Below the pieces are notes generated by a model that was not told the DNA's origin, did not search any database, and saw nothing but the letters and a program-made list of their open reading frames with translations. 64,000 bases of DNA from Armatimonadota bacterium (GTDB lineage Bacteria > Armatimonadota > Zipacnadia > Zipacnadales > JABUFB01). Below, piece after piece: positions 1,356 through 56,788 of the stretch. The stretch lies in contig JABUFB010000019.1 of NCBI GenBank assembly GCA_013314775.1, forward strand, positions 3,189 through 67,188, in the 5' to 3' direction. Within the stretch, counting starts at the first letter, position 1. Each line of letters starts with the position of its first letter. Both the position numbers and the translations under genes were made by a program.

Positions 1356-3617
1356 CTATGCCTCAGCCTTCAGGTGCCTGTCCAGAAAGGCGAATGTCCC
1401 CGCGCCGTTGATCGCGTGAGGGCCGTTGAAGACCTCCATCTCCGTGCGGTCGCCAATGCCGAGGATATCATACTGGAACCGGGTGCGGGCATACTCATAC
1501 GCGACCCACTCATCGGGCGCCACGCCGTCGAAATGCCCGCGCTCCACCATGAATGGCCGTGGGCAGATGAGCCAGCTCATTTCGGCGTAGTTGAAGGTAT
1601 TGCCCAGGTTGAACTCGGGCATCTCATACTCGCCGGTACGCAGGTAGGTGTAGCTGTGGCGGGTGGAGCAGTTCTTCCAGATCCATTCATCATAGTCTGC
1701 CGAACAGATGGACAAGCAGTAGTCGTCGAGCAGGGCCGGAACCCGCATGGCGGTCTTTCCGCCGTAGCTCAGACCGTAGAAGCCTATTCGCTGCGGATCC
1801 ACCCACGGCAGACTTTTCAGCCAGTCGAGAGTCTGCTGGTGCTGCCGGACGATGTACGAGAACAGCGAGAGCTTCAAGGGGTTCGCCTTGCGCTGAAGGA
1901 CCCGAAAGTCGTCATAGCCGATATAGGGGTTTTGCGGGGCGTAGGTGATGTACCCCTTGCTTGCGAGACGGCATGCGAACTGGCCGTAGGCGGGCACGTT
2001 ATTGCCCGGGTCTGCCACGTCTTGAGGCCGGCCCTCGAGACCGTGCTGGCACACAACCACCGGTCTACGCTCGCCTTCGCGCAGGTCGGACGGCAGAAGC
2101 AGAATGCCGTATGCGAAAACATCCTGATAAACGTCCAGCATGATCTCGTAGCCGGTGAAGTCTTCGGTCTCATAGACTTTGCGCGCCCGGGGGTTGGCCG
2201 GGAGTTCAGGCTCAGGCAGCTTGCCGATAACCTCCTCCCACAGGTACTTGCGGTACTGCCGGCACTGCCGCTCCCAGTCCTTCACGGTGGCGCCGGTGGC
2301 CTTTTTCCAGAAGTCCTTGCGTGCGAACTCCGCCTCGCGCAGGGCATGCTGTGTGTGCCCGAGCACCTGAAGGAACTGCCTGCGGTGGGTGACCTCGCTG
2401 TCCTCAAGTTCATGGGTGATCTCAGGCGCTTCTCCCGGTTCGGGTAGTGCGTCCGCAACTCCGAGGCCCTGCAGCAGGCTGGCCAGCGCCTTGTCCGAGC
2501 CCGGCCGCCCCGTCTTCGAGCGGACCAGACGGAAGTCGGTCTCCAATCCCTCGACCAGCGCCTTCGCACGGTCCAGTTCTCGCTGCACCGCCGCGAAAGA
2601 AGGCGTGCTCAGGGCTCCCGGCGCGGCTCCTGACCTACCTTCACGCGCCGGTGGCGGGCCGTTGACCTCGGGCACCGGGCAGTGCTCGACCACAAGCGGC
2701 CTCGGGGCGATGAGGGTCGCGAGTTCCGCATCCCCGAACTGCTCCAGCAGCGCCCATACATTTCGGTAGATCGGCTCTCTCCAGAGCTCCTCGCGCGGTC
2801 CGAAGTACCCGCTCACCAGGGCTGCGTCGATGCGCCGATCGACCGCCGCCGCATACAGCGCGATCAGCCCGCCTTCGCCGTACCCCGCAATTCCGATGGG
2901 GCGCCCGGAGCGCCCGGACTTAAGCCAGTCCAGCACCGCGAGGACCTTCTGCACCTCGTAACCGATGATGTGGCGCCCAAGCTCGAAGGCCGGGCGGTAG
3001 ATGAACTCCCGGTGCGGCTGGTTGGTGGCGAGGGTGAGTGCGGCGACGGAATCATCGTCCAGGCGGTTGATCAGCCACGGAACCAGCACCCGGCAGCCAG
3101 TCTCGGCAAGGCGCCGGGCGAACTGAGCGTCCGACGGCAGACCGTCTTCGATCCCGATGAGCATGCCGGGCGTCCAGTCGCAGTCGGGCAGAGCGATGAT
3201 GTCGGCGATGGGTTCGCCCCAGGGGTCCAGCACAAGACCCTCGGCCTCCACACCCGGCAGCACCGCCCAGCGGGCGCGCATCACCTGGTAGTCGTTCGCC
3301 ATGGCCACGGGCGCCTCGCAAAGCACATGCGGTCCGGTTTGCCCGACGAGTTCGAACCGCACCGGTTCGCGCTCATCAACGACGCCAATGATCCGGGCCA
3401 GCTCCTTCCGGTTCCGCGCCACCGACTTTGCGTACGCGGCGGGAGAACTCAGGTCCCGCTGCCAGTGGCGCTCACGCCTCCCGGCGATTTCGCGATTACG
3501 ACGGTCGAGGTCGCGGCTGATGCCGGCAACCATTGCCGCCGCGAGATCGCCTTTCGCGGTGAGCGGCGCGGCTCCCGGGATGCTGTCGACGCCCGTCTGT
3601 GAACGCTTCGCGGCCAT
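1356..3617 (-). CDS. alpha/beta-hydrolase fold protein with two tandem esterase-like domains (dienelactone hydrolase / acetyl-xylan-esterase-like)
   Basis: 753-aa ORF. The C-terminal domain has a canonical nucleophile elbow GFYGLSYGG and follows a HGLEGR motif. The N-terminal paralogous domain has IGIAGYGEGG at the equivalent position, with Gly replacing the nucleophile Ser. It is coding-dense and colinear. No signal peptide is evident. Confidence 0.6.
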   Translation of the reverse strand: MAAKRSQTGVDSIPGAAPLTAKGDLAAAMVAGISRDLDRRNREIAGRRERHWQRDLSSPAAYAKSVARNRKELARIIGVVDEREPVRFELVGQTGPHVLCEAPVAMANDYQVMRARWAVLPGVEAEGLVLDPWGEPIADIIALPDCDWTPGMLIGIEDGLPSDAQFARRLAETGCRVLVPWLINRLDDDSVAALTLATNQPHREFIYRPAFELGRHIIGYEVQKVLAVLDWLKSGRSGRPIGIAGYGEGGLIALYAAAVDRRIDAALVSGYFGPREELWREPIYRNVWALLEQFGDAELATLIAPRPLVVEHCPVPEVNGPPPAREGRSGAAPGALSTPSFAAVQRELDRAKALVEGLETDFRLVRSKTGRPGSDKALASLLQGLGVADALPEPGEAPEITHELEDSEVTHRRQFLQVLGHTQHALREAEFARKDFWKKATGATVKDWERQCRQYRKYLWEEVIGKLPEPELPANPRARKVYETEDFTGYEIMLDVYQDVFAYGILLLPSDLREGERRPVVVCQHGLEGRPQDVADPGNNVPAYGQFACRLASKGYITYAPQNPYIGYDDFRVLQRKANPLKLSLFSYIVRQHQQTLDWLKSLPWVDPQRIGFYGLSYGGKTAMRVPALLDDYCLSICSADYDEWIWKNCSTRHSYTYLRTGEYEMPEFNLGNTFNYAEMSWLICPRPFMVERGHFDGVAPDEWVAYEYARTRFQYDILGIGDRTEMEVFNGPHAINGAGTFAFLDRHLKAEA

Positions 3618-3689
3618 CTGTGGATCACCTCAGGGAAGTGCTGTGGTCGAACCTCGCGTAGACCGACCGTCCCGGTCGGCGGATGTCAA

Positions 3690-4046
3690 CCTTCGCGTCC
3701 GGCAGGACGCCCGGCCGCAGGCCTCTAGCCCCGGGTTTCAACCCGGGGCGTCTGCCGCCCCCTTCGGGGGCTCTTATAATCTCGAAGGAGGGGCCTGATT
3801 CCACCAGCTGACGCTGGTGGCAAGAGACTGCCGCCCCTTCGGGGCTGGACGGCAAGGGCCTGTCGAGCGGGACGCTCGACCTTTGCGTCCCTCAGGACGC
3901 CCGGCCGCAGGCCTCTAGCCCCGGGTTTCAACCCGGGGCGTCTGCCGCCCCCTTCGGGGGCTCTTATAATCTCGAAGGAGGGGCCTGATTCCACCAGCTG
4001 ACGCTGGTGGCAAGAGACTGCCGCCCCTTCGGGGCTGGACGGCAAC
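3690..4046. repeat. tandem direct repeat: two copies of a 190-bp unit containing a 100 percent identical 150-bp core with four GC-rich hairpins
   Basis: Read directly. aggacgcccggccgcaggcctctagccccgggtttcaacccggggcgtctgccgcccccttcgggggctcttataatctcgaaggaggggcctgattccaccagctgacgctggtggcaagagactgccgccccttcggggctggacggcaa occurs at about 3706-3856 and again at about 3896-4046. Hairpins are ccccggg/tttcaa/cccgggg, gcccc/ttcg/ggggc (UUCG-type loop), ccaccag/ctgacg/ctggtgg and gcccc/ttc/ggggc. Each copy carries TATAAT followed 7 nt later by AGGAGG. Confidence 0.85.
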
Positions 4047-4120
4047 GACAAACGGCGTTGGACGACAAACGGCAACGGCGAACGGCCTTGGACGGGAAAC
4101 GGCGTCGACCGTCCCCATCA

Positions 4121-4225
4121 ATCGCATAGGCCGACCGTCCCGGTCGGCGGAACCCGTCCTCACTCGCATAGGCCGACCGTCCCGGTCGGCAACAGCGATG
4201 TCGAGCGGGGACCCTCGACCTACGC
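4121..4225. repeat. cluster of short palindromic repeats (tcgcataggccgaccgtcccggtcggc x2, plus gtcgagcggg(g)acgctcgac-type palindrome)
   Basis: ggccgaccgtcccggtcggc occurs at about 4130 and about 4170, each preceded by tcgcatag. A near-copy gaccgaccgtcccggtcggc sits at about 3661, left of the 190-bp repeats. The palindrome tcgagcgggacgctcgacc (3867) recurs as tcgagcggggaccctcgacc (4201). A degenerate short tandem (g)acgacaaacggc motif lies at 4035-4100. Confidence 0.7.
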
Positions 4226-4254
4226 GGTCGGCAACAGCGACCACCTCGCTCTTG

Positions 4255-5034
4255 TCATCGCATCCACTTGCGCTTCGAATCTTCCGTCAGCAGATATAGC
4301 GGGTCATTGGCCAGCTTCTCCATACCCACCGAGTACGCATCCGCCGCGCGGAAAAGCCGCTGCTCGCTTTCACCGATGCGAGCGGTGCTCACCAGCCCGC
4401 GCTCCTCCAGTTCCCGCCCCAACGCCAGGAAGTCATTGGCTACTGTCTCCATCCGCGTGTACTCCCAGGCTTCCCCGCCCGGGTTCGCGACGCCGTCAAG
4501 GATGATCGTGGCGCGGCGGGACTCGATGAACCGGTAGGGCACTCTCGCTTCGGCTTCGAGCAGGTGGAACAGCGTGCAACTGTTGTAGGTCACGCCCATG
4601 AGCAGTACGCGGCCATCCATGTCCACGAGGGTCTTGAAGGGGCTGTCCGGGCCGAAGCCCGTCCTGTGGGGAGTACGGCAGATCAGATTGGCCGCGGGGC
4701 CGATTGCCGCCAGCGGATGCGCCGCGTGGCTGCTCCGAATCGCCCCGGGCCAGGTGCGCACGGTCTCCGAAATGATCCCCATCCGCGAGGGAGTGTTCTC
4801 CCGGTCCCAGACCGTCTCCCCGCCCTGGAGGTATTGGCTGAAGGTGGGCACCACCAGCGTCCCTTCCGGCCCCAGCACGCCAAGCAAAGCCTGCACCACG
4901 GTCGGCGCGCCACCTTCCACGCGCCCGAAACTGGACAGGCTGCTGTGGACGATTACCGTCTGCCCTGCGCCCAGACCCAGCGCCGACAGGCCCTCGCGGA
5001 TATCCTCGCCGGTTACGCCCGCATGTGAACTCAT
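4255..5034 (-). CDS. aminoglycoside 3-N-acetyltransferase family protein (AAC(3)/Antibiotic_NAT fold)
   Basis: 259-aa ORF. The N-terminal VIVHSSLSSFG...P.F motif is characteristic of AAC(3). Length fits the family. Resistance activity cannot be inferred from sequence alone. Confidence 0.7.
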   Translation of the reverse strand: MSSHAGVTGEDIREGLSALGLGAGQTVIVHSSLSSFGRVEGGAPTVVQALLGVLGPEGTLVVPTFSQYLQGGETVWDRENTPSRMGIISETVRTWPGAIRSSHAAHPLAAIGPAANLICRTPHRTGFGPDSPFKTLVDMDGRVLLMGVTYNSCTLFHLLEAEARVPYRFIESRRATIILDGVANPGGEAWEYTRMETVANDFLALGRELEERGLVSTARIGESEQRLFRAADAYSVGMEKLANDPLYLLTEDSKRKWMR

Positions 5035-5040
5035 GTTGCG

Positions 5041-7965
5041 TTACTCCTCGGGGCGAATCAGCCAGATCGTGCCCGATGAATCCGTGCCGCCGCTAGATGC
5101 GACCTCGGCCACGAGTTCGTACTTCGCATCCGCGCGGTATTCCGGCAGCCTGATTTCGTAGACGTTCCCGCTGCTGCCACTCCCCGCCCAGCCACGGTGG
5201 ATGTCCTCGGAGATCGCCTGCCCGTTCTCCAGAAGGCTGACCTTGCGGATCACCAGCCCGTGCGCGCCCCGGTCATACTGCCACTCAACCTGCCACGCGC
5301 CCCCCTGCTTGATGTGCGCGGTGACGTCTAGCGTGAGGGTCACGCCCTCCTCGCTCATCTGCGCCGGCTCCCAGCCCCCGGCTTTCGCATAAGTGCCTGA
5401 GAGCAGGCCGAACTTTGTACCCGGGGGAAGGGCAGCAGGCGTGTCAAGACTGTCCTTCAATGCCTCCAGTTCCCCCGCAAGAGCAGACAGTTGGTCAGCC
5501 TGGGTTTCGAGGCGAGTCGCGTCGCCGACGTAGGCTCCGCAGTTGTCGATGAAGTACTTATACTCCAGGGCCCTTGTCCTTGCCTCGTCCCCGAGAGCCC
5601 GCAGCCGGGCCACTATTTCCGCCAGCGTTGCCTGCCGCTGTGCAAGCTCACCCTCGCCCAGAGGCTTGCGCAGTGCGGCGTACTGGGAGGTGATGTCCCG
5701 GAAGGTGTTCACCTTCCGGCCCGCATACTCGGCCAGCGCGAAGCCCAGATCGGCAGCCCGCAGGGTCAGGTGATTTGTCCCGGCGAGTTCATTCAGCCGC
5801 CTCACCTTGCCCCGGGCCGCCTGCATGGCCTCGATGAGAGCGCCGGCACTGGCCGCCGCCACCGGGGTCTTCAGGCCGAACTCTCGCATGACGTCGCGCG
5901 GGGCCGTCCAGAGAATGTCCGTGGTGAGGCGCCAGTTGCGCCACATTCCTGCCGCCCCCGTGCGCGCCACCGGCTCGCGCAGGCCCTGAGCAACGAGGCC
6001 GGGAGCCTCCTGCGCGCTTGTTCCGAGCCACTGGTCCGCAAAGCGCCGGTCGAACTCGCCGGTACTGCTGCTGCGCGGGTTCCAGGAACAGTCTGCCGCG
6101 AACAGCAGGCCATACATGCTGTTCTCGATGAGCGCCCCGTGCATGAACTCCCAGGTTGTGCAATAAGCTCCGCCGCAACCCGCCTCGGCCCCTGCGCGGT
6201 AGAAGCCCCGGATGCCCCGTATCGTTGTCTCGTAGTCTGGCCAGATCACCGAGTAACTCACCACTGCCGGGCAGCAGTGCACATCCTTGAACCCCGCCTG
6301 CTGGTACTGCTTGAGAGTCGGGTATTCCGCCGGTCCGTGGTAGATCCACTCGGTGGGGATGCAGTCCTTTTCCATCTGGTCGCTGTACTTGAGGGTCATG
6401 TCGCTCAGTTCCGGTGTGGGGCCGTGGTGGGATGGCCAGAACATCATGGTCCGCCCGTGCTTCTTCACAAGCTGGTTTAACTTGTTCATATGCTCGGCGT
6501 ACAGGGCGCCCATGCCGCCCGCTTCCACTTTCGCCTTGCACCGCGGGCACTTGGCGAACCCGAACTCGAACTCGTCGGCGCCGGTGTGGATGAACTCGGT
6601 GGTCGGGAAGGCTTCCACAAGCTCGGCGAACACGGTGTCCAGGAACTTCCAGGTCTCGGGCTCGCTGGTGCAGAAGACCCAGGGGTCGCCGGCCTCCCGC
6701 ATCTTCTCCATCTCTGGGTGCCGCAGTACCGCCGACGCGTGCCCGAGGGCCTCGAACTGGGGAATCAACTGCATGTGGTACGGGCGGGCGTATTCCGTAA
6801 GCTCCCGGGCTTTGTCGTGGGTAAAAGTGCCCTCGCGTCCGAGGAATGGGAATGCCCTGAAGCGGAAGTCGTCCTCCATGTAGAAGAGCAGGCCATTGAT
6901 CTTGCACCTTGCAAGGGCGCGGATCATCCGCTTCACATACTCCACGTTCACGCTCTGTCCCCGGGCGATGTCGTACTGGATAATCCGGTATGGGAAAGCC
7001 GGCCAGTCTCGCACGCTGCAGCAGGCGACCCCCGGGCCCCCCTCAGTCTTCCGGGCCATCTGGCCGAGTGTGATCGCCCCGTACAGGATGCCCCGAGCGT
7101 CCCGGGCTCTGACCTGCGCGCCGTCGACGGATACCTCCAGCGCGTAGGCTTCAGGACTGTCCGAGGGCACGTTGGGATCTGCTTTCAGCAGCAAGAGAGA
7201 ATTGCGGGGCGCATCCCCCTTCTGCGGGTCCAGCGCACGCACGCCCAACTCCAGCCCGGTGCGCTCCTGGATCAACGCCTGCAGCTCCCGGGCAGCGAAG
7301 GCCGCGTCCTCATCGCCATCCGCGTGGCAGATAACGGTATCCGCCTCGAGCGCGAAGTCCCCGCCGGTCAAGTCAATCTGCTGCGGCAGGGGGATCAGCG
7401 ATACGCCGGCATCAGTCAGCGCCGCCGCGGCCTTCATCTGCCGGGTGGATTCCTCGTCCATCACTGTCGCCAGTGCGAACAGGTCCCTGCCCGTGCCGTA
7501 ACGGTAGGAGGTCCACCCGTCGCCGGCCACGGTCGCGCCGACGAAGATGTCGATGTATCCGCGCCGCCGGTCGTCGGCGGTGATTCTTTCAGTCAGGTCG
7601 ATAGGGGCCTGGTTGGTCCGGTTCCATTCGTCCCCGTCGGTGACAATGGGGCCCTCATAGATAAGCTCTCCATCGGCGCTATCTCGCCGCAGCAGCAACT
7701 GGTAGCTGGTGCCCTTCCCGCTGTAAGCGACAACTGCCCCGATGCGCAGCCAGTACCCGGCCGCCTCCTGTTCGGGCACAGGAAATCGCATTGGCACCCA
7801 GTTGCCGGACTCGATGAGCCCGAGGTGTCCTTCGCCCATCGGGGTTCGGGCCAAAGGGGCGAGACGCTTTGCGTATTCGCCGAACTCTGCCCAACGCTCC
7901 GACTGGCATTGTCCGACACTTGTCACCAGCAGTGCCACCATCAATAGGGACCCGCAAATCCGCAC
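5041..7965 (-). CDS. GH20 beta-N-acetylhexosaminidase family protein with C-terminal extra domain
   Basis: GH20b-like N-domain (YALEVSVDGAQVRARDARGILYGAITLGQM), then the catalytic TIM barrel (VRDWPAFPYRIIQYDIARG ... IHTGADEFE = H-x-G-x-D-E). A long C-terminal region follows. The track ORF extends to 8064. The likely start is GTG 7965 (MRICGSLLMVALLVTSVGQCQS signal peptide) or ATG 7941. Confidence 0.75.
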   Translation of the reverse strand: MRICGSLLMVALLVTSVGQCQSERWAEFGEYAKRLAPLARTPMGEGHLGLIESGNWVPMRFPVPEQEAAGYWLRIGAVVAYSGKGTSYQLLLRRDSADGELIYEGPIVTDGDEWNRTNQAPIDLTERITADDRRRGYIDIFVGATVAGDGWTSYRYGTGRDLFALATVMDEESTRQMKAAAALTDAGVSLIPLPQQIDLTGGDFALEADTVICHADGDEDAAFAARELQALIQERTGLELGVRALDPQKGDAPRNSLLLLKADPNVPSDSPEAYALEVSVDGAQVRARDARGILYGAITLGQMARKTEGGPGVACCSVRDWPAFPYRIIQYDIARGQSVNVEYVKRMIRALARCKINGLLFYMEDDFRFRAFPFLGREGTFTHDKARELTEYARPYHMQLIPQFEALGHASAVLRHPEMEKMREAGDPWVFCTSEPETWKFLDTVFAELVEAFPTTEFIHTGADEFEFGFAKCPRCKAKVEAGGMGALYAEHMNKLNQLVKKHGRTMMFWPSHHGPTPELSDMTLKYSDQMEKDCIPTEWIYHGPAEYPTLKQYQQAGFKDVHCCPAVVSYSVIWPDYETTIRGIRGFYRAGAEAGCGGAYCTTWEFMHGALIENSMYGLLFAADCSWNPRSSSTGEFDRRFADQWLGTSAQEAPGLVAQGLREPVARTGAAGMWRNWRLTTDILWTAPRDVMREFGLKTPVAAASAGALIEAMQAARGKVRRLNELAGTNHLTLRAADLGFALAEYAGRKVNTFRDITSQYAALRKPLGEGELAQRQATLAEIVARLRALGDEARTRALEYKYFIDNCGAYVGDATRLETQADQLSALAGELEALKDSLDTPAALPPGTKFGLLSGTYAKAGGWEPAQMSEEGVTLTLDVTAHIKQGGAWQVEWQYDRGAHGLVIRKVSLLENGQAISEDIHRGWAGSGSSGNVYEIRLPEYRADAKYELVAEVASSGGTDSSGTIWLIRPEE

Positions 7966-12718: not shown

Positions 12719-13251
12719 CGATGAGCTGGTCCAGGGCCGGTGTCTGTGCCGGTACTCTCCTACGCTGCGCGGCGGGTTTTCTCGCGACGCTTCGCTGAGA
12801 CCAGATCCGCCGAATGGTGCATTCTCTCCAGCATCTCAGCTCGCTTGGCCCAGCGCTGTCCTGCCGGCTCGGGGTACAGGTAACGTCGGCCCGAGGTCTT
12901 CGGGCGCGCTGTTGTTCCAGCTGATCGCACCGCTCCCGCCGCGTGACTGTCATGCAGCAAGATCCGCAGGGCCGCGTATGCGACGATCATCAACCCGATA
13001 TGCAGACCATTGAGCGATGTGCTTCCCAGGGGGCAGATCCAGTCCATCGTCGTCAACTCCAGCACGTGCCGCGATGTGGTTATTCGAATAACAGTTCGAT
13101 ACTACTGCGAAACCAATCCGGTGTCAAGATGTAGAAGATTAAGATTTGACTCTATACAGCATTGGACAGATTTCGCGTGGAGTTGGTTCCGCGGCAGGCG
13201 AAGATTGCTACCGGGGGACCCGAACATCCATTCCGTGCGTGTCGGCTCAGC

Positions 13252-36198: not shown

Positions 36199-36649
36199 TC
36201 TAGAACACCTCGGAGAACTTCATTGCGGTGGTGCGGGCAGGGCGGTGTCCCCACCCGACATGCGGGCTTCGGAGCGCCCGCAGAGCCTGTTCCAGCACCG
36301 AGGGACGAATCCCTCCTGTGGCTGGGGATGGTTCCGCGGGAAGGCCATAACCGTCACCAGAACGGAGCTTCAGTTTCGCCGGTGCTTCCACGTGGTCTGA
36401 TCGCTGGTCGGAGCGTATCCGGCTTTGACCAGCAGGAGTGCGGTCCCATTGCCCGCAGAGCGGGCGAGAGCCCATAGCCTGGGGCGGAAGCCTCCGGATC
36501 CACTTCCGCCGGGGGCCGCAGGCGGACGGCTCCTGCCGGAGCCTGACCGCGGCCCGGCTCCAGCACCAAGGGTACCGGGGCGCCGGCCACACACGAGGCC
36601 GGCACGCCTCTGGCCAAACCGCTGCGCCTGCGCGCCTGCGCGAAAAAGT

Positions 36650-36678
36650 TTGCCTTTACACGCCGGATCGTGTATAGT
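36650..36678 (+). promoter_or_regulatory. sigma70-like promoter (TTGCCT-N17-TATAGT) driving the cold-shock gene, with about 140-nt 5-prime UTR
   Basis: ttgcctttacacgccggatcgtgtatagt read directly. A long leader is typical of csp mRNAs. AGGAGG lies 10 nt before the ATG. Confidence 0.5.
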
Positions 36679-36818
36679 AAGCGAGTTCCTGTCGGCGATA
36701 GCGGGCAGGGACTCTCAAAGGCTAGGGTGCTATTGACCGACTGGACAAGACGCTTCTCCTCCAGTAGGGGCTGCAAGTGCGTCACTAGTCAACACTGGTA
36801 GGAGGTGCGTTTGTCAAA

Positions 36819-37022
36819 ATGGCAACAGGCACCGTCAAATGGTTCAACGACGATAAGGGTTTCGGTTTCATCGAGACGGAGGGGCACGCAGACGTCTTCG
36901 TGCACTTCTCTGCTATCACCGGCGAGGGCTACCGCAGCCTGAACGAGGGCGCGAAGGTCGAGTTCGACATCGTCCCTGACGCCAAGGGCCCCCGGGCAGC
37001 CAACGTCACCGTTATCGGCTAA
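36819..37022 (+). CDS. cspA: cold shock protein, CspA family
   Basis: [33 protein letters not shown]: RNP1/RNP2 motifs. 67 aa. Confidence 0.9.
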
Positions 37023-37045
37023 GAATCCGGAAAAGCAGTCAGGAA

Positions 37046-37080
37046 ACAGCCCCACCGAACACCACGGTGGGGCTGTTTTG
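37046..37080 (+). terminator. rho-independent terminator after csp
   Basis: acagccccacc-gaacacca-cggtggggctgtttt: GC stem plus T-run, 24 nt after the stop. Confidence 0.55.
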
Positions 37081-44934: not shown

Positions 44935-45331
44935 AGGTACGGGCCGCTCTGATCTGGGGTATGTCAAGGGCCCGGCGGAAGTGTACAGCCGCATCTCGAC
45001 CGTAGCCCCCGCAGGGCGCCAGCCATTTGCCAGAAGGCTCAGCTGGTGGGATCAGGCTCTGCGACCGCGGATGAGCCCCGAAGAGGTGCTAGAGATTCTC
45101 TGGGTCTGCCGCCCCTTCGGGGCTCTCCATTTCCATGTGCGCCGATCCCACGGGTTCCGTTGCGCTTCGCCTCCACCCGTGGCTATCAGCTGCCACCCGC
45201 TATGCGGGCTGTGAGGCAACGCCCATGCTGACTCTCGGTTGCTGATCGGGCGCCGCACGGTCCTCGGCCGCCTGTCTCCCCTTTGGGGCTTTCCCGCGAT
45301 GGAGAGGCGGCAGGGTTGCTGCCGTGGTCCC

Positions 45332-47116
45332 TCACTCCGGCCATTTCTCCGGCCGGTACTTCATGATGACCTCGTTGGTCGTCGGGATGATCCCATACAG
45401 TTCCGGCCGGCGGCGGGAGAAGATCATCTCGCGCCAGCCCGGCTTCTGCTCCGGCATATCCTCGGTGAAATAGCTGGGGATGTCCCACTCGCCGCGTTTC
45501 GGCTGGTCCGCGCGCAGGCCCTCGTAGTACACCCGGCTTGCGCTGAAGTCGATGTCGTAGCTGATGACCCCCTCCTGCTGGAAGCCCGAGGACGCCATGA
45601 CCTGCCCGTACGGGTCGATGATCACGCTGCGCAGGCTGGCGTCCGAGGAGTTCCAGTGTGAGCAGGCCACCCAGAATGCATTGTCCGCGGCCCGAGCGCG
45701 CAGGAGCGTCTCATTCACACGGCCATTGGGTCCCCACATCTGGCTTGGGTCCAGCAGCAGCTCCACACCGTTCAGGGCAAGCGTCCGGTCCAGGAAGGGA
45801 GCATACAGGTCGCCGCAGGTGTGGGTGCTGATGCGCGCGAAGTCCGTGTCGATCCAGGTCAGTTCGGGGAACCCGCTGGGCCAGTAGATGGGTTGCCCGA
45901 ACACCTCCCTGCCTTGCCGGTCCCACAGGCGCGCGATGCTGATGAAGTCTTTGTCGCCCAGGCCGCCGATGAGGATATAGCAGCCGTATTCGCGGGCCTT
46001 CTCGGCGATGACCGCGAAGGCCTGCTGAGTGACCGGGTCCTCCGCCTTCGCCGCCTGCTCGGACGCCAGAATGATGTCCGGTTTGAGTTCCGCGGCTTTG
46101 TCGATGAGTTCGAACAGCCGCTGGGGAAGCTCCCCATCGCGCCAGATATTCTCGGAGTTCATGGCGATCACGGCCAGGCGCGCGGTGCGTTTCTCATACC
46201 GGGGAAGCTCCGGCGGTGACCACGGTTCGGCCACCGGGTGGAATGCTTTCCGGTCGCCGAGGACGTTTACGTAGAAGCAGTTCTCGTCCTTCTTCCAGCC
46301 TTTGTAAGGGTCCACCTTGCGCTTGTCCAGGTTCACGGTAGCGGTGGCCACGCCGTCCTCGAAGCCGGTGTCGGCGATTGGCACCCCAACGCGGTTCACG
46401 ATCATGCTCCGTCCCCAGGCAGCGCCCTGCATGCCGTAGTTGTAGCGGTTGCTGATATACGGGCGCGGGTCGGAATAGTGCGCGGCGATGAGGTGCGCGT
46501 GGCTGTCGACGGCCCGCGCGGTAAGGAGCGGCTCCCAGGTGCTGTGGTCCCGGAAGCGTTCGGGGAAATGCTGCCACAAGAGGATCTCCGCGCCCTTCAT
46601 GCGCAGGACCTCGTAGATCTCCGGAAAATAGAAGTCGGTGCCGATGGTTGCGCCGATGACGCCGAAATCGGTGGTGAACACCTCGAGATCGTCGCCGAGG
46701 GACAGGTCGTCGTCGGGCAGGGCGTGGGTCTTGCGGGACTTGAACGCCACCTTGCCTCCGCGGTCGAGAAGCACCGAGGTGGCATAGACCCGCTCCCCAT
46801 CGTCCTCAATCATCGCCAGGGCGAGGTAGGTGCGGTTGGCCGCGGCGAGCGTTCGGAAGGCAGAAAGGTCCTGTGCCTCGTGCCCCGTGCGGAAGGTGAG
46901 GAACGGCGTGTAGGGCAGCACCACGAGATCGCTGCCCGGTATTGCGCAGGCGCGTTCGGCCATCTGCAGGACGTACTCCGGGTTCTGGAACTCCTTGCCC
47001 TCCAGCAGGCACACGGAAGACAGGACGACGACACGGTCGGCGGCGTTGGCGGCCAAGATAGACCCTCCCAGCATGGCGATCAGAAGCAACCCTCGAATGG
47101 TTTGCATCGGTACCAC
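45332..47116 (-). CDS. secreted protein with two tandem carbon-nitrogen hydrolase (nitrilase-superfamily) domains
   Basis: Signal peptide MVPMQTIRGLLLIAMLGGSILAANA. First domain has IGATIGTDFYFPE (Cys position substituted). Second domain has ISTHTCGDLYAPF with a retained Cys. Confidence 0.55.
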   Translation of the reverse strand: MVPMQTIRGLLLIAMLGGSILAANAADRVVVLSSVCLLEGKEFQNPEYVLQMAERACAIPGSDLVVLPYTPFLTFRTGHEAQDLSAFRTLAAANRTYLALAMIEDDGERVYATSVLLDRGGKVAFKSRKTHALPDDDLSLGDDLEVFTTDFGVIGATIGTDFYFPEIYEVLRMKGAEILLWQHFPERFRDHSTWEPLLTARAVDSHAHLIAAHYSDPRPYISNRYNYGMQGAAWGRSMIVNRVGVPIADTGFEDGVATATVNLDKRKVDPYKGWKKDENCFYVNVLGDRKAFHPVAEPWSPPELPRYEKRTARLAVIAMNSENIWRDGELPQRLFELIDKAAELKPDIILASEQAAKAEDPVTQQAFAVIAEKAREYGCYILIGGLGDKDFISIARLWDRQGREVFGQPIYWPSGFPELTWIDTDFARISTHTCGDLYAPFLDRTLALNGVELLLDPSQMWGPNGRVNETLLRARAADNAFWVACSHWNSSDASLRSVIIDPYGQVMASSGFQQEGVISYDIDFSASRVYYEGLRADQPKRGEWDIPSYFTEDMPEQKPGWREMIFSRRRPELYGIIPTTNEVIMKYRPEKWPE

Positions 47117-53013: not shown

Positions 53014-54807
53014 ATGTTGCGACAGACAAGACTGTTTGCATTGTTCGCGGCAATTATCACCACGACAGGCTGCGTCGAGCCGGCCTGCGAGGTGCTGCTC
53101 GTGCGCAGCGAAGACTCTTCGGCGTCCAACTGGGGCGCTCTGCCGGGGTTCATGTCCCGGACCGCCCGCGTGGAGATGCGCGAGGACGGCCGCCTGCCCG
53201 AAGGCGACCTGCACCAGTACAGGCTTATCGCGCTGAGCACCAATCTCAACGTCTACCGGGAGGACCGGCGGCGGCTGTGGGAGTTCGCCAATCGCGGCGG
53301 CATCCTGGTCACCTGGTTCGCTGATGACGTGCGCAGCGAGGCCACCTTCTGGCCGTACCGGCTGGTGCTTGGTGATCGTGACCCCGATCAGGTGACCTTC
53401 CGCGATGATCCCCACCCACTCCTGGACGGACTGCGCGGGAAGGCTTTCAGTGGCCAGATGTGCGGGGGCGATGTGGTGCGTGACTGGGATCGCGAGCACT
53501 GGCGAGTACTGGCAGAGAGCCCCGACGGGCCGGCGCTCCTGGTTGCTGCATACGGCGCGGGACATCTCGTCGCCGCACAGTTCCACGCACCACTCTCCGC
53601 GCGGGAGGAACTGGCGCGTCCGCTTGCCGACAATCTTCTGAAATGGGCGGGCGTGAAGCAGGTGGCGGCGGAGGACCTGGCTGCTCGCGCGGACCTGGAG
53701 GTTCTCACAGCACTGGCCCGCCGGCAGATAAGGGAGTTGGGGGCCGGCGAGTGGAAGCGCGGTTCGTGGGATGATGTGAGCAAGTCCCGCCCGGTACGGG
53801 GCATCTCGTGGTCTTACCCGCGGGGCGTCACGCTCTACGGGCTGCTGAAGCTGAGCGAATCGGGTGGGGGAGAGGAGTGGGGGCAGTTCGTGCTGCGCCA
53901 CAACGAACTGGTGGCGAAACAGTGGGACTGGCTCACGTGGCAGATGGAGACATTCGGCCGCCGCACACCGGCCCAGGGCATCGAGGAACTCATGCGCCTG
54001 AGCAGCCTGGACGACTGCGGATCAATGGGGAGCCAGGTGCTCGAGGGGCTTCTCGCGCACGGGGCCACTGCGTCCCCCGAGATGACCCGGATGCTGCAGC
54101 GCATTGCCGACTACATTCACACGCGACAGTCACGCCTGCCGGATGGGACTCTCTGCCGCGGCCGCACGCTGTGGATCGACGACCTGTATATGAGCGTCCC
54201 CTTCCTGGCGCGCTGGGGCACTTACTCGGGCAAGCCCGAGTACTGGGATGACGCCGCGCAGCAGATCATCAAGTTCGCCTCGCGCCTGCAGGACGAGGAT
54301 GGGCTGTGGTATCACGGGTGGTTCGACCGCGAGCAGCGGCATTCGCGGTACAAGTGGGGCAGAGGAAACGGTTGGGCGGTGCTGGCGCAGGTGGAACTGC
54401 TGGGTCAATTACCGGCAGATCACCCGGCCCGCAAGAAGCTGCTAAGTATCCTGGAAAGGCACCTGAAGGGTATCGCGCAGCACCAGGCGCAATCGGGGAT
54501 GTGGCGGCAGATCGTGGACATGCCCGAACTGTGGGAAGAGACCTCCTGCACTGGGATGTTCGCATACGCTCTGGGGCGGTCGAGGCGGGAAGGGTGGATC
54601 GATTGGGACGGCAAGGCCGTTGCGCGGAAGGCCTTCGATGCGCTCAAGACAAAGGTGCTATGGGACGGTTCGGTTACGGACACATGTGTGGGAACCGGGG
54701 TCAACAACAGCCTGGACTACTACAGGGAGCGCCCCCGGACGCTGAATGATCCGCATGGCCCCGGGCCGGTGCTGCTTGCGGGGGCAGAACTGCTTCGGGA
54801 GGAGTGA
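53014..54807 (+). CDS. lipoprotein: N-terminal ThuA/class-I-glutamine-amidotransferase-like domain fused to GH105 unsaturated rhamnogalacturonyl hydrolase-like domain
   Basis: Lipobox LFALFAAIITTTGC. C-terminal DDLYMSVPFLARWG ... WGRGNGWAVLA matches GH105/GH88 (alpha/alpha)6 hydrolases. Confidence 0.6.
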   Translation: MLRQTRLFALFAAIITTTGCVEPACEVLLVRSEDSSASNWGALPGFMSRTARVEMREDGRLPEGDLHQYRLIALSTNLNVYREDRRRLWEFANRGGILVTWFADDVRSEATFWPYRLVLGDRDPDQVTFRDDPHPLLDGLRGKAFSGQMCGGDVVRDWDREHWRVLAESPDGPALLVAAYGAGHLVAAQFHAPLSAREELARPLADNLLKWAGVKQVAAEDLAARADLEVLTALARRQIRELGAGEWKRGSWDDVSKSRPVRGISWSYPRGVTLYGLLKLSESGGGEEWGQFVLRHNELVAKQWDWLTWQMETFGRRTPAQGIEELMRLSSLDDCGSMGSQVLEGLLAHGATASPEMTRMLQRIADYIHTRQSRLPDGTLCRGRTLWIDDLYMSVPFLARWGTYSGKPEYWDDAAQQIIKFASRLQDEDGLWYHGWFDREQRHSRYKWGRGNGWAVLAQVELLGQLPADHPARKKLLSILERHLKGIAQHQAQSGMWRQIVDMPELWEETSCTGMFAYALGRSRREGWIDWDGKAVARKAFDALKTKVLWDGSVTDTCVGTGVNNSLDYYRERPRTLNDPHGPGPVLLAGAELLREE

Positions 54808-55006
54808 TGGGCTGCTCTGTCGCCCCTTGCGGGGGCTCAGAGGGCAGCCCGGGGCCGATCCCAGGGGTTCCGGTCCGCTTCGCGGCCTCCACCCCCTGGC
54901 TATAGGCGGACGGCCCCTCCGGGGCCTTACGACAAGATGCGGTGCTGACTTGTCCCCTACGGGGCCTTACGATAGAGACGGGGCAGCGTCGACCGGGCCT
55001 GCGCGG

Positions 55007-56788
55007 CTATTCGCTCTCCCCGTCACTCAGCGGCAAGATGAACCCGAACCTCGCGCCGCCTTCGGGCCGGTTTTCGGCGAAAACGCTGCCACCATGGGCA
55101 GCAATGATCTCCCGCGCAATCGCCAGACCAAGCCCGGCGCCGGTGTCCGCAGGTCCCCGCGACTTGTCCACCTTGTGGAAACGCTCCCAGATGTGCGCAA
55201 GATGCTCCGGGGGCACGCCGGGGCCATCGTCTTCCACCAGTACGCGGACCTGCGCCGGTGAGGGTCTACCCAACTGTTCTACCGAGACCCGCACTTTGCC
55301 GGCCGGGGGGGAATGTCGTATCGCGTTGTCCACGAGATTGATGACCACCCGCACCAGGCGGTCGCCGTCGGCTCGCACAGTAAGCGGGTCCGGCCGCTGG
55401 TAGTCGAGTTCGACGGAAGCTGCACTCGCGACGGGAGCCAGTGCGTCCACCGCTGCGCTGACCACTCCGCCGATGTCCAGATCGTCTGGTTCGAAGGTCA
55501 CGACCCCGGCCTGCAGGCGGGACAGGTCCAACAGCTGATCCACCAGCTTCCGCATGAGGTCGGCCTGGTCCGAGGCCACGCGTACACAGCGCTGTCGCTC
55601 CTCTTCGGTCTCGGCGGTACCGTCAGCCAGGGCTCCCAGGTAGCCGCGGATTGAGGTCAGCGGTGCCCGCAGTTCGTGGGATGCATTGGCCACGAACTCA
55701 CGCCGCAGTCGCTCGAGGCGCTCGGTCTCGGTGATGTCGGTGATGACCACCACTGCACCGCCAGCGGCCGCACTGATCCTGGCGCCGCGCAGGCGCAGGA
55801 TGCGTTCCCCTCGCTCCATGTCCCGTGCGAAGCTCTCGCTTTCGCCCTCGAGCAGCAGTTCCACGTCCGCCAGCACGTCTTCAGGCAGGTCCAGGTCAGC
55901 AAGGGCGGCCTCGTCCGGAAGCTCGGGCAGCTCAAGCAGCTTTCGGGCGCCATCATTGAGCATGACGAGTGATCCGTCGGAAGACAGGCCGACCACGCCC
56001 TCGTGCATGCTGGCAAGGATGTCCGCGAGCTGCTCGCGCTCCCGGGACAGGTCAGCAAAGGCCGTTGCGAGCGCGTCGGTCATGTGGTTCAGGCTGGCTG
56101 CCACGGTGCGCAGTTCTATTGGCCCCTGCCGGCGAACGCGGGTTGTGAAGTCTCCCTCTGCGAGGTCCGAGGCGGCGCGAGCCACTTCAGCGAGGGGACG
56201 AGCGATGGAACGGCTGGCCATTGCAGCCAGCACGAGGGCGAGGATGGCCGCAGCTGCGCCGGATGCGGCAAAAAGGCCCGTTGCGGTGCGAAGGGTGGTT
56301 TCGACTTCCCGCAGGGGCCGACGGAGAATCAGGGATCCACGAACGGTGTTTTCGCCGGGGCTACGGATAGGCGCTGTAACGGAGATAACCGGTCCGGGGT
56401 AGCAGTAACTGCGGGTACGGTCAATACTGGAGCACGTGCCGGCTGCGTAGAGAAGCTCGTCCATGTCTGGTCCCGAGCCGGCGCCGGGCTTCAGGTCGCT
56501 GCTGGCGATGAGGCCCTCGCGCTCCTGGTCGAACACGCAGACTCGACCGCCCAGGGTGAGGCTTGCGGTGCGGGCGATCATGCCGATCTGCTCGCTTCGG
56601 TCCGGGTCGTCCATGAGACGCGCGATGTCCGCCGCCATGTCATCGGCCGCCGCGGCCAGGGCCTCGCGCGTCTGCGTCACGTAATAGTGGCGGAACAGGC
56701 GCGTGGATAGGAGGCCGACCAGGGACAGGGCGACCACGGCCACCAGAAGGTGGGTGGTGAGCAGCCGGGAGTAGAGGCTACTGAACAT
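55007..56788 (-). CDS. sensor histidine kinase (TM-HAMP-HisKA-HATPase)
   Basis: N-terminal TM helix, HAMP region, H-box ASHELRAPLTSIRGY, ATP-lid GAGLGLAIAREI. Confidence 0.8.
   Translation of the reverse strand: MFSSLYSRLLTTHLLVAVVALSLVGLLSTRLFRHYYVTQTREALAAAADDMAADIARLMDDPDRSEQIGMIARTASLTLGGRVCVFDQEREGLIASSDLKPGAGSGPDMDELLYAAGTCSSIDRTRSYCYPGPVISVTAPIRSPGENTVRGSLILRRPLREVETTLRTATGLFAASGAAAAILALVLAAMASRSIARPLAEVARAASDLAEGDFTTRVRRQGPIELRTVAASLNHMTDALATAFADLSREREQLADILASMHEGVVGLSSDGSLVMLNDGARKLLELPELPDEAALADLDLPEDVLADVELLLEGESESFARDMERGERILRLRGARISAAAGGAVVVITDITETERLERLRREFVANASHELRAPLTSIRGYLGALADGTAETEEERQRCVRVASDQADLMRKLVDQLLDLSRLQAGVVTFEPDDLDIGGVVSAAVDALAPVASAASVELDYQRPDPLTVRADGDRLVRVVINLVDNAIRHSPPAGKVRVSVEQLGRPSPAQVRVLVEDDGPGVPPEHLAHIWERFHKVDKSRGPADTGAGLGLAIAREIIAAHGGSVFAENRPEGGARFGFILPLSDGESE

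Follow-up and report, generated by a model that had tools for sequence, protein, structure and literature searches.

The locus and its tandem repeat

We analysed a window of 64,000 nt from an Armatimonadota bacterium (assembly GCA_013314775.1, contig JABUFB010000019.1; all coordinates are window positions) and, within it, an intergenic gap filled with a mosaic of hairpin repeats whose building block, a three-hairpin DNA unit, also occurs in many other genomes. The gap extends from the start of an alpha/beta hydrolase gene to the stop codon of an AAC(3)-family acetyltransferase gene. A preliminary description of this DNA had placed the repeats between these two genes, which is right with one correction: both genes lie on the minus strand, the gap being the 3' flank of the AAC(3) gene and the 5' flank of the hydrolase gene. 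Three open reading frames (ORFs) around the gap were scanned, those of the hydrolase, of AAC(3) and of a GH20 enzyme. The GC content of the gap is 68%, compared to 64% for the window, a value lower than the 66% or more previously given for the genome. The features of the locus are as follows.

1356..3617, minus strand: alpha/beta hydrolase, 753 aa
3618..4254, no strand: intergenic gap from hydrolase start to AAC(3) stop, hairpin-repeat mosaic of BIME-like (bacterial interspersed mosaic element) appearance
4255..5034, minus strand: AAC(3)-family acetyltransferase, 259 aa (Pfam Antibiotic_NAT, E 2e-59)
3686..3855, no strand: tandem copy A, 170 nt, 98% identity to copy B
3876..4045, no strand: tandem copy B, 170 nt, equal to copy A across 3893-4045
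3695-3710: additional hairpin GCGTCC-NNNN-GGACGC, present in every repeat copy
3728-3749: GCCCCGGGTTTCAACCCGGGGC, repeated 190 nt on
3752-3772: CTGCCGCCCCCTTCGGGGGCT, repeated 190 nt on
3775-3780: TATAAT, repeated 190 nt on
3786-3791: AGGAGG, repeated 190 nt on
3801-3820: CCACCAGCTGACGCTGGTGG, repeated 190 nt on
3828-3846: CTGCCGCCCCTTCGGGGCT, repeated 190 nt on

The tandem has a period of 190 nt (Tandem Repeats Finder score 693, 98% matches), and the longest stretch identical at this offset covers 153 nt (3703-3855 = 3893-4045). This confirms the perfect direct repeat of about 150 bp, in two copies spaced by 190 bp, that had been reported from a first reading of the sequence. The hairpins, TATAAT and AGGAGG listed at that time were all recovered at their positions; to the four hairpins counted per unit has to be added a further one, GCGTCC-NNNN-GGACGC, which had been missed. 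Because 153 nt are identical, the recent duplication proposed earlier is reasonable; what was duplicated is probably an already existing mobile-element dimer.

A three-hairpin unit dispersed in the window

The repeated part of the tandem contains a GC-rich unit of ~89-95 nt in which the elements follow a fixed order: a hairpin H2a, a variable spacer of ~25-28 nt, a hairpin H1, a short linker (~10 nt) and a hairpin H2b. H2a and H2b are alike, each with a CTGYCG foot, a 5-bp stem and a TTC loop followed by CT, and H1 has an 8-bp stem and a CTNACG loop context followed by CTA. We described the unit by a covariance model of 89 positions and three hairpins, R1, which was built from 20 units of other genomes, the window being left out. 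At least eight R1 matches were obtained at four sites in the 64 kb, a density of about one site per 15 kb, all of them outside long ORFs in apparently non-coding DNA.

3752..3846, plus strand: complete unit A, R1 67.1 bits, E 1e-14, full length, 95 nt (H2a 3752-3772, spacer 3773-3800, H1 3801-3820, linker 3821-3827, H2b 3828-3846)
3942..4036, plus strand: complete unit B, R1 67.1 bits, E 1e-14, full length, identical to unit A
3707..3792, minus strand: degenerate inverted unit of copy A, R1 21.4 bits, E 1e-3 (window) and 1e-5 (local)
3897..3982, minus strand: degenerate inverted unit of copy B, R1 21.4 bits
45004..45210: head-to-head dimer between convergent ORFs, made of a minus-strand unit (45004-45092, R1 26.5 bits) and a plus-strand unit (45106-45210, R1 45.7 bits)
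54817..54926, plus strand: unit with a long H1 variant, R1 33.8 bits, E 1e-6
36450..36528, minus strand: weak unit, R1 21.3 bits, E 1e-3

In the inverted unit of copy A, CTAG comes after a hairpin of the H1 type (3749..3728, minus strand) whose loop is GUUGAAAC; the same loop type adjoins a transposase gene of the Y1 type in another genome (L127, see below) and occurs in the Rfam seed of the Acido-Lenti-1 family. We take 3707..3792 on the minus strand to be the left partner of a truncated head-to-head dimer. Beyond 3618-4254, the units of the window sit between convergent ORFs or right behind a stop codon: the unit at 54817 begins 10 nt past the stop of ORF 53014..54807 (plus strand), with the convergent ORF 55007..56788 (minus strand) ahead. 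The 19-mer of H2, CTGCCGCCCCTTCGGGGCT, recurs at 45106, where a hairpin core between convergent genes had already been noticed at about 45100, and has four matches in the window with up to 3 mismatches, compared to 0.07 expected. In the window, R1 units were found at 36.4, 45.0-45.2 and 54.8 kb in addition to the gap; the unit is not unique. A degenerate H2 (CTGTCTCCCCTTTGGGGCT) was also seen at 45272-45290 (plus strand), with the stop of ORF 45332..47116 (minus strand) ~40 nt away; besides the dimer, the 45-kb gap therefore contains a solitary H2. Near the weak unit at 36450-36528, positions 36644-37079 (plus strand) gave a weak match to the Rfam cspA thermoregulator (29.5 bits, compared to a gathering threshold of 78; E 9e-4).

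Distribution and conservation in other genomes

In a scan with one genome per species, the H2 19-mer was found exactly in at least 120 stretches. Record titles among the matches listed name Planctomycetota, Acidobacteriota, Armatimonadota, Verrucomicrobiota, Prevotella, Thermodesulfobacteriota, Hydrogenedentota and others. In loci of other genomes pre-selected by the 19-mer, 693 kb in total, the model R1 detected 187 units with E<1e-3. Among the best 150 of the 187 units, 49 of 56 close neighbour pairs are arranged head-to-head, a minus-strand unit followed by a plus-strand unit, with a modal gap of 23 nt and a span of 190-220 nt into which the period of the window tandem falls. Units occur in both orientations, neither being preferred, and conservation ends abruptly at their edges.

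The three stems are supported by covariation: 97.7% of the cells of the alignment are paired and 16 of the 18 pairs have changed on both sides, in 269 cells. None of 500 shuffles reached these values, and slid controls dropped to scores of 0.013-0.046. G-U pairs are almost absent from the unit stems (~11 of 2540 cells, about 0.4%). An RNA-only fold would tolerate such pairs; their near absence therefore points to selection at the DNA level, on palindrome pairing on both strands, and we infer from these alignments that the stems are probably selected as a DNA palindrome.

The spacer and H1 sequences of the window were also searched in metagenomes. The exact 26-mer of the window spacer had no match in the JGI metagenomes. 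The H1 20-mer of the window gave 33 loci, mostly unrelated coding sequence or terminators, and a single one of them, L168, is a close relative of the window unit. Two further observations concern particular genomes. One contig filed as viral (L004, IMGVR_UViG_3300005529_000118) carries two head-to-head dimers, at 5358-5550 and 12912-13147; a prophage is one possible explanation, a piece of chromosome filed wrongly another. The Isosphaeraceae metagenome-assembled genome MFD05705.bin.2.126 gave many matches (L014, L017, L018, L029, L047, L058, L059, L061 and L075), and its dimers share extra conserved sequence past the unit (…CGGATAGCCTCT), suggesting that a longer subfamily has been amplified locally.

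Association with a Y1 transposase gene

All-against-all clustering of the ORFs of these loci gave one specific recurrent neighbour, a protein of ~150 aa with the Pfam domain Y1_Tnp (E 5e-28 and 3e-22), present in four loci. Its gene is directly flanked by units in all four: L062 and L099 have the layout reverse-complemented unit, ATG to stop, unit, and in L069 and L100 the hairpin units lie downstream of the gene only. The reverse test started from the protein. Six homologues were picked by protein similarity alone (57-77% identity to the queries; P0060, P0116, P0034, P0070, P0262 and P0237), and each of the six has R1 units 2-75 nt from the gene. L174 is a model case of the arrangement, with a unit on the minus strand at 1087-1179, the Y1 gene at 1201-1650 and a unit on the plus strand at 1653-1748; in L168 the corresponding elements are at 1301-1395, ~1402-1853 and 1862-1956. 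The left arm of L168 is the closest relative of the window unit: H1 is identical, and the linker and H2b are nearly so. In total, a unit directly flanks a small IS200-like Y1 (HUH) gene in 11 loci, 6 of which were selected by protein similarity only. In several loci the Y1 gene occupies exactly the position of the central spacer of a dimer, so that a dimer has the appearance of a derivative that lacks the gene, or of a substrate used in trans by the Y1 enzyme.

The Y1 protein scores 76 bits with NF033573 (IS200-type; cut-off 55) and 34 bits with NF047646 (RAYT; cut-off 80). It carries the motifs HUH, WQxGY and Y---Q--HH and a conserved C-terminal extension. Most of the Y1 protein clusters were seen on only one, often short, contig; a gene of low copy number whose flanking repeats interrupt the assembly could give this picture. 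Other ORF clusters, judged by eye from their sequence, were rejected as partners: an ABC-transporter ATPase-like family (Walker A/B and LSGGQ-type motifs), a histidine-kinase-like family and a large exported family are common and have no fixed position relative to the units.

Several of the Y1 loci have peculiarities of their own. In L099 (810-1262, minus strand), an Asp replaces the catalytic Tyr of the unit-flanked protein (…DIDNQKEHH vs …YIQTQQEHH), and this copy may be inactive. The Y1 gene of L168 shows a frameshift near its N-terminus (~1402-1470, two tblastn pieces in different frames), due either to decay of the copy or to a sequencing error. Behind the Y1 gene of L100, which belongs to a low-GC genome, lies an array made of H2 hairpins only, with ~25-nt spacing (4970-5190; …CTGTCACCCCTTCGGTGACT / CTATCGCCCCTCGGGGCT…), followed by inverted H2 copies; the family can therefore exist without H1. 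The exact 20-nt CCACCAGCTGACGCTGGTGG was found within ~100 nt of distant Y1-like ORFs in L141, L144, L145 and L166 (26-36% identity to the unit-linked proteins), and similar hairpins may be common to several Y1 lineages.

These data bear out the earlier suggestion of a dispersed REP/BIME-like repeat (REP, repetitive extragenic palindrome): the element is multi-copy in the window and in many genomes, forms inverted dimers and flanks Y1 genes elsewhere. We consider it likely that the gap is a BIME-like cluster of a non-autonomous element of the REP/REPIN type (REPIN, a REP doublet), probably moved in trans by a Y1 enzyme.

Flanking repeats and comparison with related genomes

The tandem copies are accompanied by other repeats.

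3663..3679, plus strand: hairpin G (CCGACCG-TCC-CGGTCGG), copy nearest the hydrolase start
4118..4240, plus strand: 42-nt tandem repeat in three copies with hairpin G at 4131-4147, 4173-4189 and, in degenerate form, ~4216-4231
3863..3879, no strand: palindrome P (TCGAGCGGGACGCTCGA; TCGAGCGGG..CGCTCGA), between the tandem copies; second copy at 4201-4218
4039..4103, no strand: 30-nt tandem repeat (ACGGCAACGACAAACGGCGTTGGACGACAA), 2.2 copies, 85% matches, between copy B and the hairpin-G array

The sequence CCGACCGTCCCGGTCGG of hairpin G is exact at 3663, 4131 and 4173, compared to a chance expectation of 0.77 matches with 3 mismatches allowed. The three hairpins and the two palindromes of the flanks that had been described are indeed present. 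Hairpin G at 3663 aligns weakly to the H2 positions of R1 and can be written in an H2-like form with a GCCG foot, a 5-bp stem and a TCC loop. The 30-nt tandem repeat at 4039-4103 contains no hairpin and is not matched by R1.

A relative whose AAC(3) protein is 87% identical (P0123, SRR17386484; three Logan assemblies) has the same order of GH20, AAC(3) and 753-aa hydrolase genes. Its gap measures 183 bp and contains no R1 match. The only features shared with the window are a P-like palindrome and hairpin G, which in both genomes lies ~45 nt from the hydrolase start. Comparison of the two gaps suggests that the units were gained in the lineage of the window, or lost in that of the relative, beside a pre-existing H2-like hairpin. 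The hairpin G of the relative reads GCCGACCGGGACGGTCGGC on the gene strand (L133, ~5901-5919). The tetranucleotide 5' of hairpin G is GTAG in one window copy, ATAG in two and ACAG in the relative. Hairpin G might serve as an operator; alternatively, it might be an ancient solitary hairpin of the H2 kind from which the cluster grew.

Alternative explanations

The hairpins might instead be cis-acting signals selected at this locus, a terminator, insulator or messenger RNA (mRNA) stabiliser after AAC(3) and/or operators of the hydrolase gene, and not mobile DNA. The location of the window units behind stop codons or between convergent genes is the usual site of 3' stabilisers, the conservation of hairpin G upstream of the hydrolase start in the relative is operator-like, and E. 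coli REPs have been reported to affect mRNA stability and termination (PMC6006769). However, none of the hairpins is followed by a U-tract, no intrinsic terminator (a GC hairpin with a U-tract) was found on either strand in 3400-4500, so that the multi-terminator array suggested earlier is not supported, and the complete units are antisense to both flanking genes. Moreover, the same sharp-edged 89-nt unit is found beside unrelated genes in many phyla and flanks Y1 genes, and the relative has no unit at the locus. We thus regard selection of cis-acting signals as an unlikely origin of the gap; such a role can be true as a secondary effect, and it leaves the origin and distribution of the units unexplained.

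Each 190-nt copy could also encode a trans-acting small RNA (sRNA), a duplicated small RNA being one possibility raised in the preliminary description; it would be an Acido-Lenti-1 gene read on the plus strand from TATAAT to H2b. Full-length matches to RF01687 (Acido-Lenti-1; positions 1-46 of 46, all pairs standard) were obtained at 3801-3846 and 3991-4036 on the plus strand, with a score of 33.2 bits (E 1.7e-5 when 1.1 kb was searched, 1e-3 for the whole window), and Rfam types this family as Gene; sRNA. The TATAAT ends 20 nt before the motif and the unit folds well (z = -4.7). The score remained under the gathering threshold of 37. The minus strand folds as well as the plus strand (z = -4.7), the stems avoid G-U, and the units mostly form inverted dimers without preferred orientation, the motif being part of a longer, transposase-linked unit. 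A consensus scan for sigma-70-like sites (-35/-10 with 16-18 nt spacing) gave none in 3400-4500, and the TATAAT has no -35 partner. TATAAT and AGGAGG belong to the H2a-H1 spacer, which is less conserved than the rest of the unit and reads CAGGTT and ACGGGG at these positions in L168; we regard both hexamers of the window as probable chance features of the spacer of one subfamily, and the proposed promoter array is not retained either. Overall, we judge an sRNA gene very improbable. The window contains no tRNA and no tmRNA. Other Rfam families proposed in 3400-4500 (Pab19, ncS037 and others) were far under threshold (E>0.4) and were rejected.

An assembly artefact, or a purely local duplication of a unique sequence, has still less in its favour. 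The copies are 100% identical over 153 nt, and short-read contigs stop at the repeat. In the Logan assembly of run SRR6186653 the flanking genes are on separate contigs that end at ~3717 and ~4114, inside repeats, one ~31 nt into the tandem and the other within the hairpin-G array. In a 96%-identical strain (SRR16606022) the first 141 nt after AAC(3) are the same and the contig stops at the same point. The breaks in SRR6186653 match what a genuine repeat does to a short-read assembly, so that this independent assembly agrees with a real repeat and leaves its copy number unfixed. On the other side, copies A and B differ at their 5' ends and are joined by a unique sequence that carries palindrome P, the unit has other copies in the window and in many genomes, and tandem arrays of Lentisphaera with periods of ~192-200 nt are already in the Rfam seed. 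We consider an artefact or a local duplication of unique sequence highly improbable. Finally, a CRISPR-like or guide-RNA array, to which a 170-nt repeat followed by ~20 nt of differing sequence and the regular periods of 74-115 nt in some seed arrays might lend a resemblance, can practically be dismissed, since there are two copies only, units elsewhere are mostly inverted and not direct, the ORFs flanking the gap encode the hydrolase, AAC(3) and the GH20 enzyme, and ORF clustering gave no recurrent Cas, TnpB or IscB-like neighbour, Y1_Tnp being the sole specific one.

Comparison with known systems

Weinberg et al. 2010 (PMC2864571) reported Acido-Lenti-1 from Acidobacteria and Lentisphaerae; they regarded it as probably a non-coding RNA and could assign it no function. 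The seed of RF01687 includes Koribacter, Lentisphaera, Rhodopirellula and Geobacter and contains tandem copies at periods of 74, 110, 115 and ~192-200 nt. H1, a 12-nt linker and H2b of the window unit cover the entire 46-nt model, both stems being formed, and differ from it by GGCAA in place of GGCUA. Unlike the Rfam family as described, the motif constitutes here the 3' two-thirds (H1-H2b) of a longer DNA element that forms inverted dimers and lies beside Y1 genes.

The unit shares with the REP, BIME and REPIN sequences of E. coli and Pseudomonas (Di Nocera 2013, PMC3733652; Quentin 2018, PMC6006769) the character of short, GC-rich extragenic palindromes in many copies, the predominance of inverted dimers and the clustering in intergenic mosaics, after genes and between convergent genes. 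The apparently single-copy Y1 HUH gene with repeats inverted on its sides also recalls the layout of a REPtron. The unit differs from a REP in having three hairpins in ~89 nt, compared to one hairpin of 20-40 nt.

Among the Y1 proteins, Quentin et al. 2018 (PMC6006769) describe those of subclass 1.2 TnpA-Y1 as low in copy number, unlike insertion sequences and, as a rule, devoid of terminal hairpins. The unit-linked Y1 resembles them by its Y---Q--HH motif, short core and conserved C-terminal extension, an assignment made by published motif only. The relatives found here are, in contrast, flanked by a defined hairpin unit, on Acidobacteriota-like and Planctomycetota-like contigs. Class 3 is REPtron-like, with high-copy atypical hairpins in Planctomycetes and Acidobacteria (PMC6006769); it was rejected as the partner, its NHVH, W[TA] and YV..EQ motifs and its CnGA foot not fitting. 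The TIRYT proteins of Di Nocera 2013 (Koribacter aba1552 and others) were set aside as well, as they have the NPV motif of class 2. The supplementary tables of Quentin et al. 2018 contain no hairpin sequence matching the unit, and in the literature covered, which falls short of all journals, we found no paper linking Acido-Lenti-1 or Y1 subclass 1.2 to such an element.

The dimers also resemble miniature elements derived from the IS200/IS605 family (palindrome-associated transposable elements), for a dimer corresponds to the unit/Y1/unit arrangement of L062, L099, L168 and L174 minus the gene, and the unit ends match those of the Y1-carrying element in these four loci. A miniature element classically stands in this relation to its parent. 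However, the ends of IS200/IS605 elements (IS608, ISDra2) are asymmetric hairpins on one strand, whereas inverted copies are found here. Elements of this family insert 3' of a fixed tetra- or pentanucleotide and do not duplicate the target. In the assemblies sampled, the Y1 clusters are mostly on one contig and do not appear as multi-copy insertion sequences, and some Y1 genes have units on one side only.

Proposed mechanism and significance

IS608 TnpA and the E. coli TnpA-REP provide the background for a hairpin mechanism of Y1 enzymes (PMC6006769). By analogy with them, a Y1 enzyme would bind the hairpins on single-stranded DNA at the replication fork, then cut and rejoin at the conserved feet, so that units would be moved or copied in trans. 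A truncated dimer would have arrived in the lineage of the window and then undergone tandem duplication with a period of 190. Slippage or recombination between hairpins would generate the 190-nt tandem and the 42-nt hairpin-G array. Any side effect on the AAC(3) and hydrolase transcripts, for example through RNA hairpins that insulate them or stabilise their 3' ends, would be secondary.

Several points weigh against a mobile element served by a Y1 enzyme. No Y1 gene was found in the 64-kb window by tblastn, and the Y1 genes were seen on Acidobacteriota-like and Planctomycetota-like contigs while the organism of the window belongs to Armatimonadota. Mobility is deduced from the distribution of the units and from one comparison of genomes that are ~87% identical in the neighbouring protein; the two gaps are otherwise too diverged to give exact junctions, and a clean empty site was not obtained. 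No target-site duplication or target motif was seen, apart from a preference for TT 5' of the unit. Since the exact H2 19-mer was used to fetch most of the loci, the selection itself ensures the conservation of one H2 in each unit; the second H2, H1 and the linkers are free of this bias. The unit lacks the GTAG/GTGG head of REPs, its conserved unpaired parts being CTGYCG, CT and CTA, and its partner is of the IS200 type with Y---Q--HH, unlike the RAYT proteins (class 2 TnpA-REP, YxxxNP). Lastly, the hairpins form on either transcript strand and may have a function at the RNA level.

With these points weighed, the mobile-element explanation of the gap can be extended to the family, with less assurance. 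We find it fairly likely that the Acido-Lenti-1 'sRNA' is not an RNA gene but part of a REPIN-like DNA element of ~89 nt with three hairpins, the long-missing partner of the orphan Y1 HUH proteins of subclass 1.2, and that the pair, whose 19-nt hairpin with its foot hardly varies, occurs in at least eight phyla, the window showing a cluster after a recent tandem duplication. If true, this near invariance would imply either a very tight recognition code between protein and single-stranded DNA or frequent horizontal transfer.

For the window itself the object is of an ordinary kind, a repeat cluster. The gap would be explained as selfish or domesticated repeat DNA, for which annotation as an sRNA gene, a promoter or a terminator array is unwarranted, and its perfect repeats are an assembly hazard. 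What is new is a testable enzyme-substrate pairing for the family. It would link an Rfam motif without known function to a Y1 HUH subclass without known substrate, and provides a concrete candidate pair, the 89-nt unit with its feet CTGYCG, CT and CTA and the 150-aa protein, in the poorly studied phyla Planctomycetota, Acidobacteriota, Armatimonadota and Verrucomicrobiota. Should the enzyme be confirmed, it would be a compact nickase/ligase of single-stranded DNA with specificity for both sequence and structure, and its units could serve as a marker in strain typing and help to detect contig breaks in metagenome bins.

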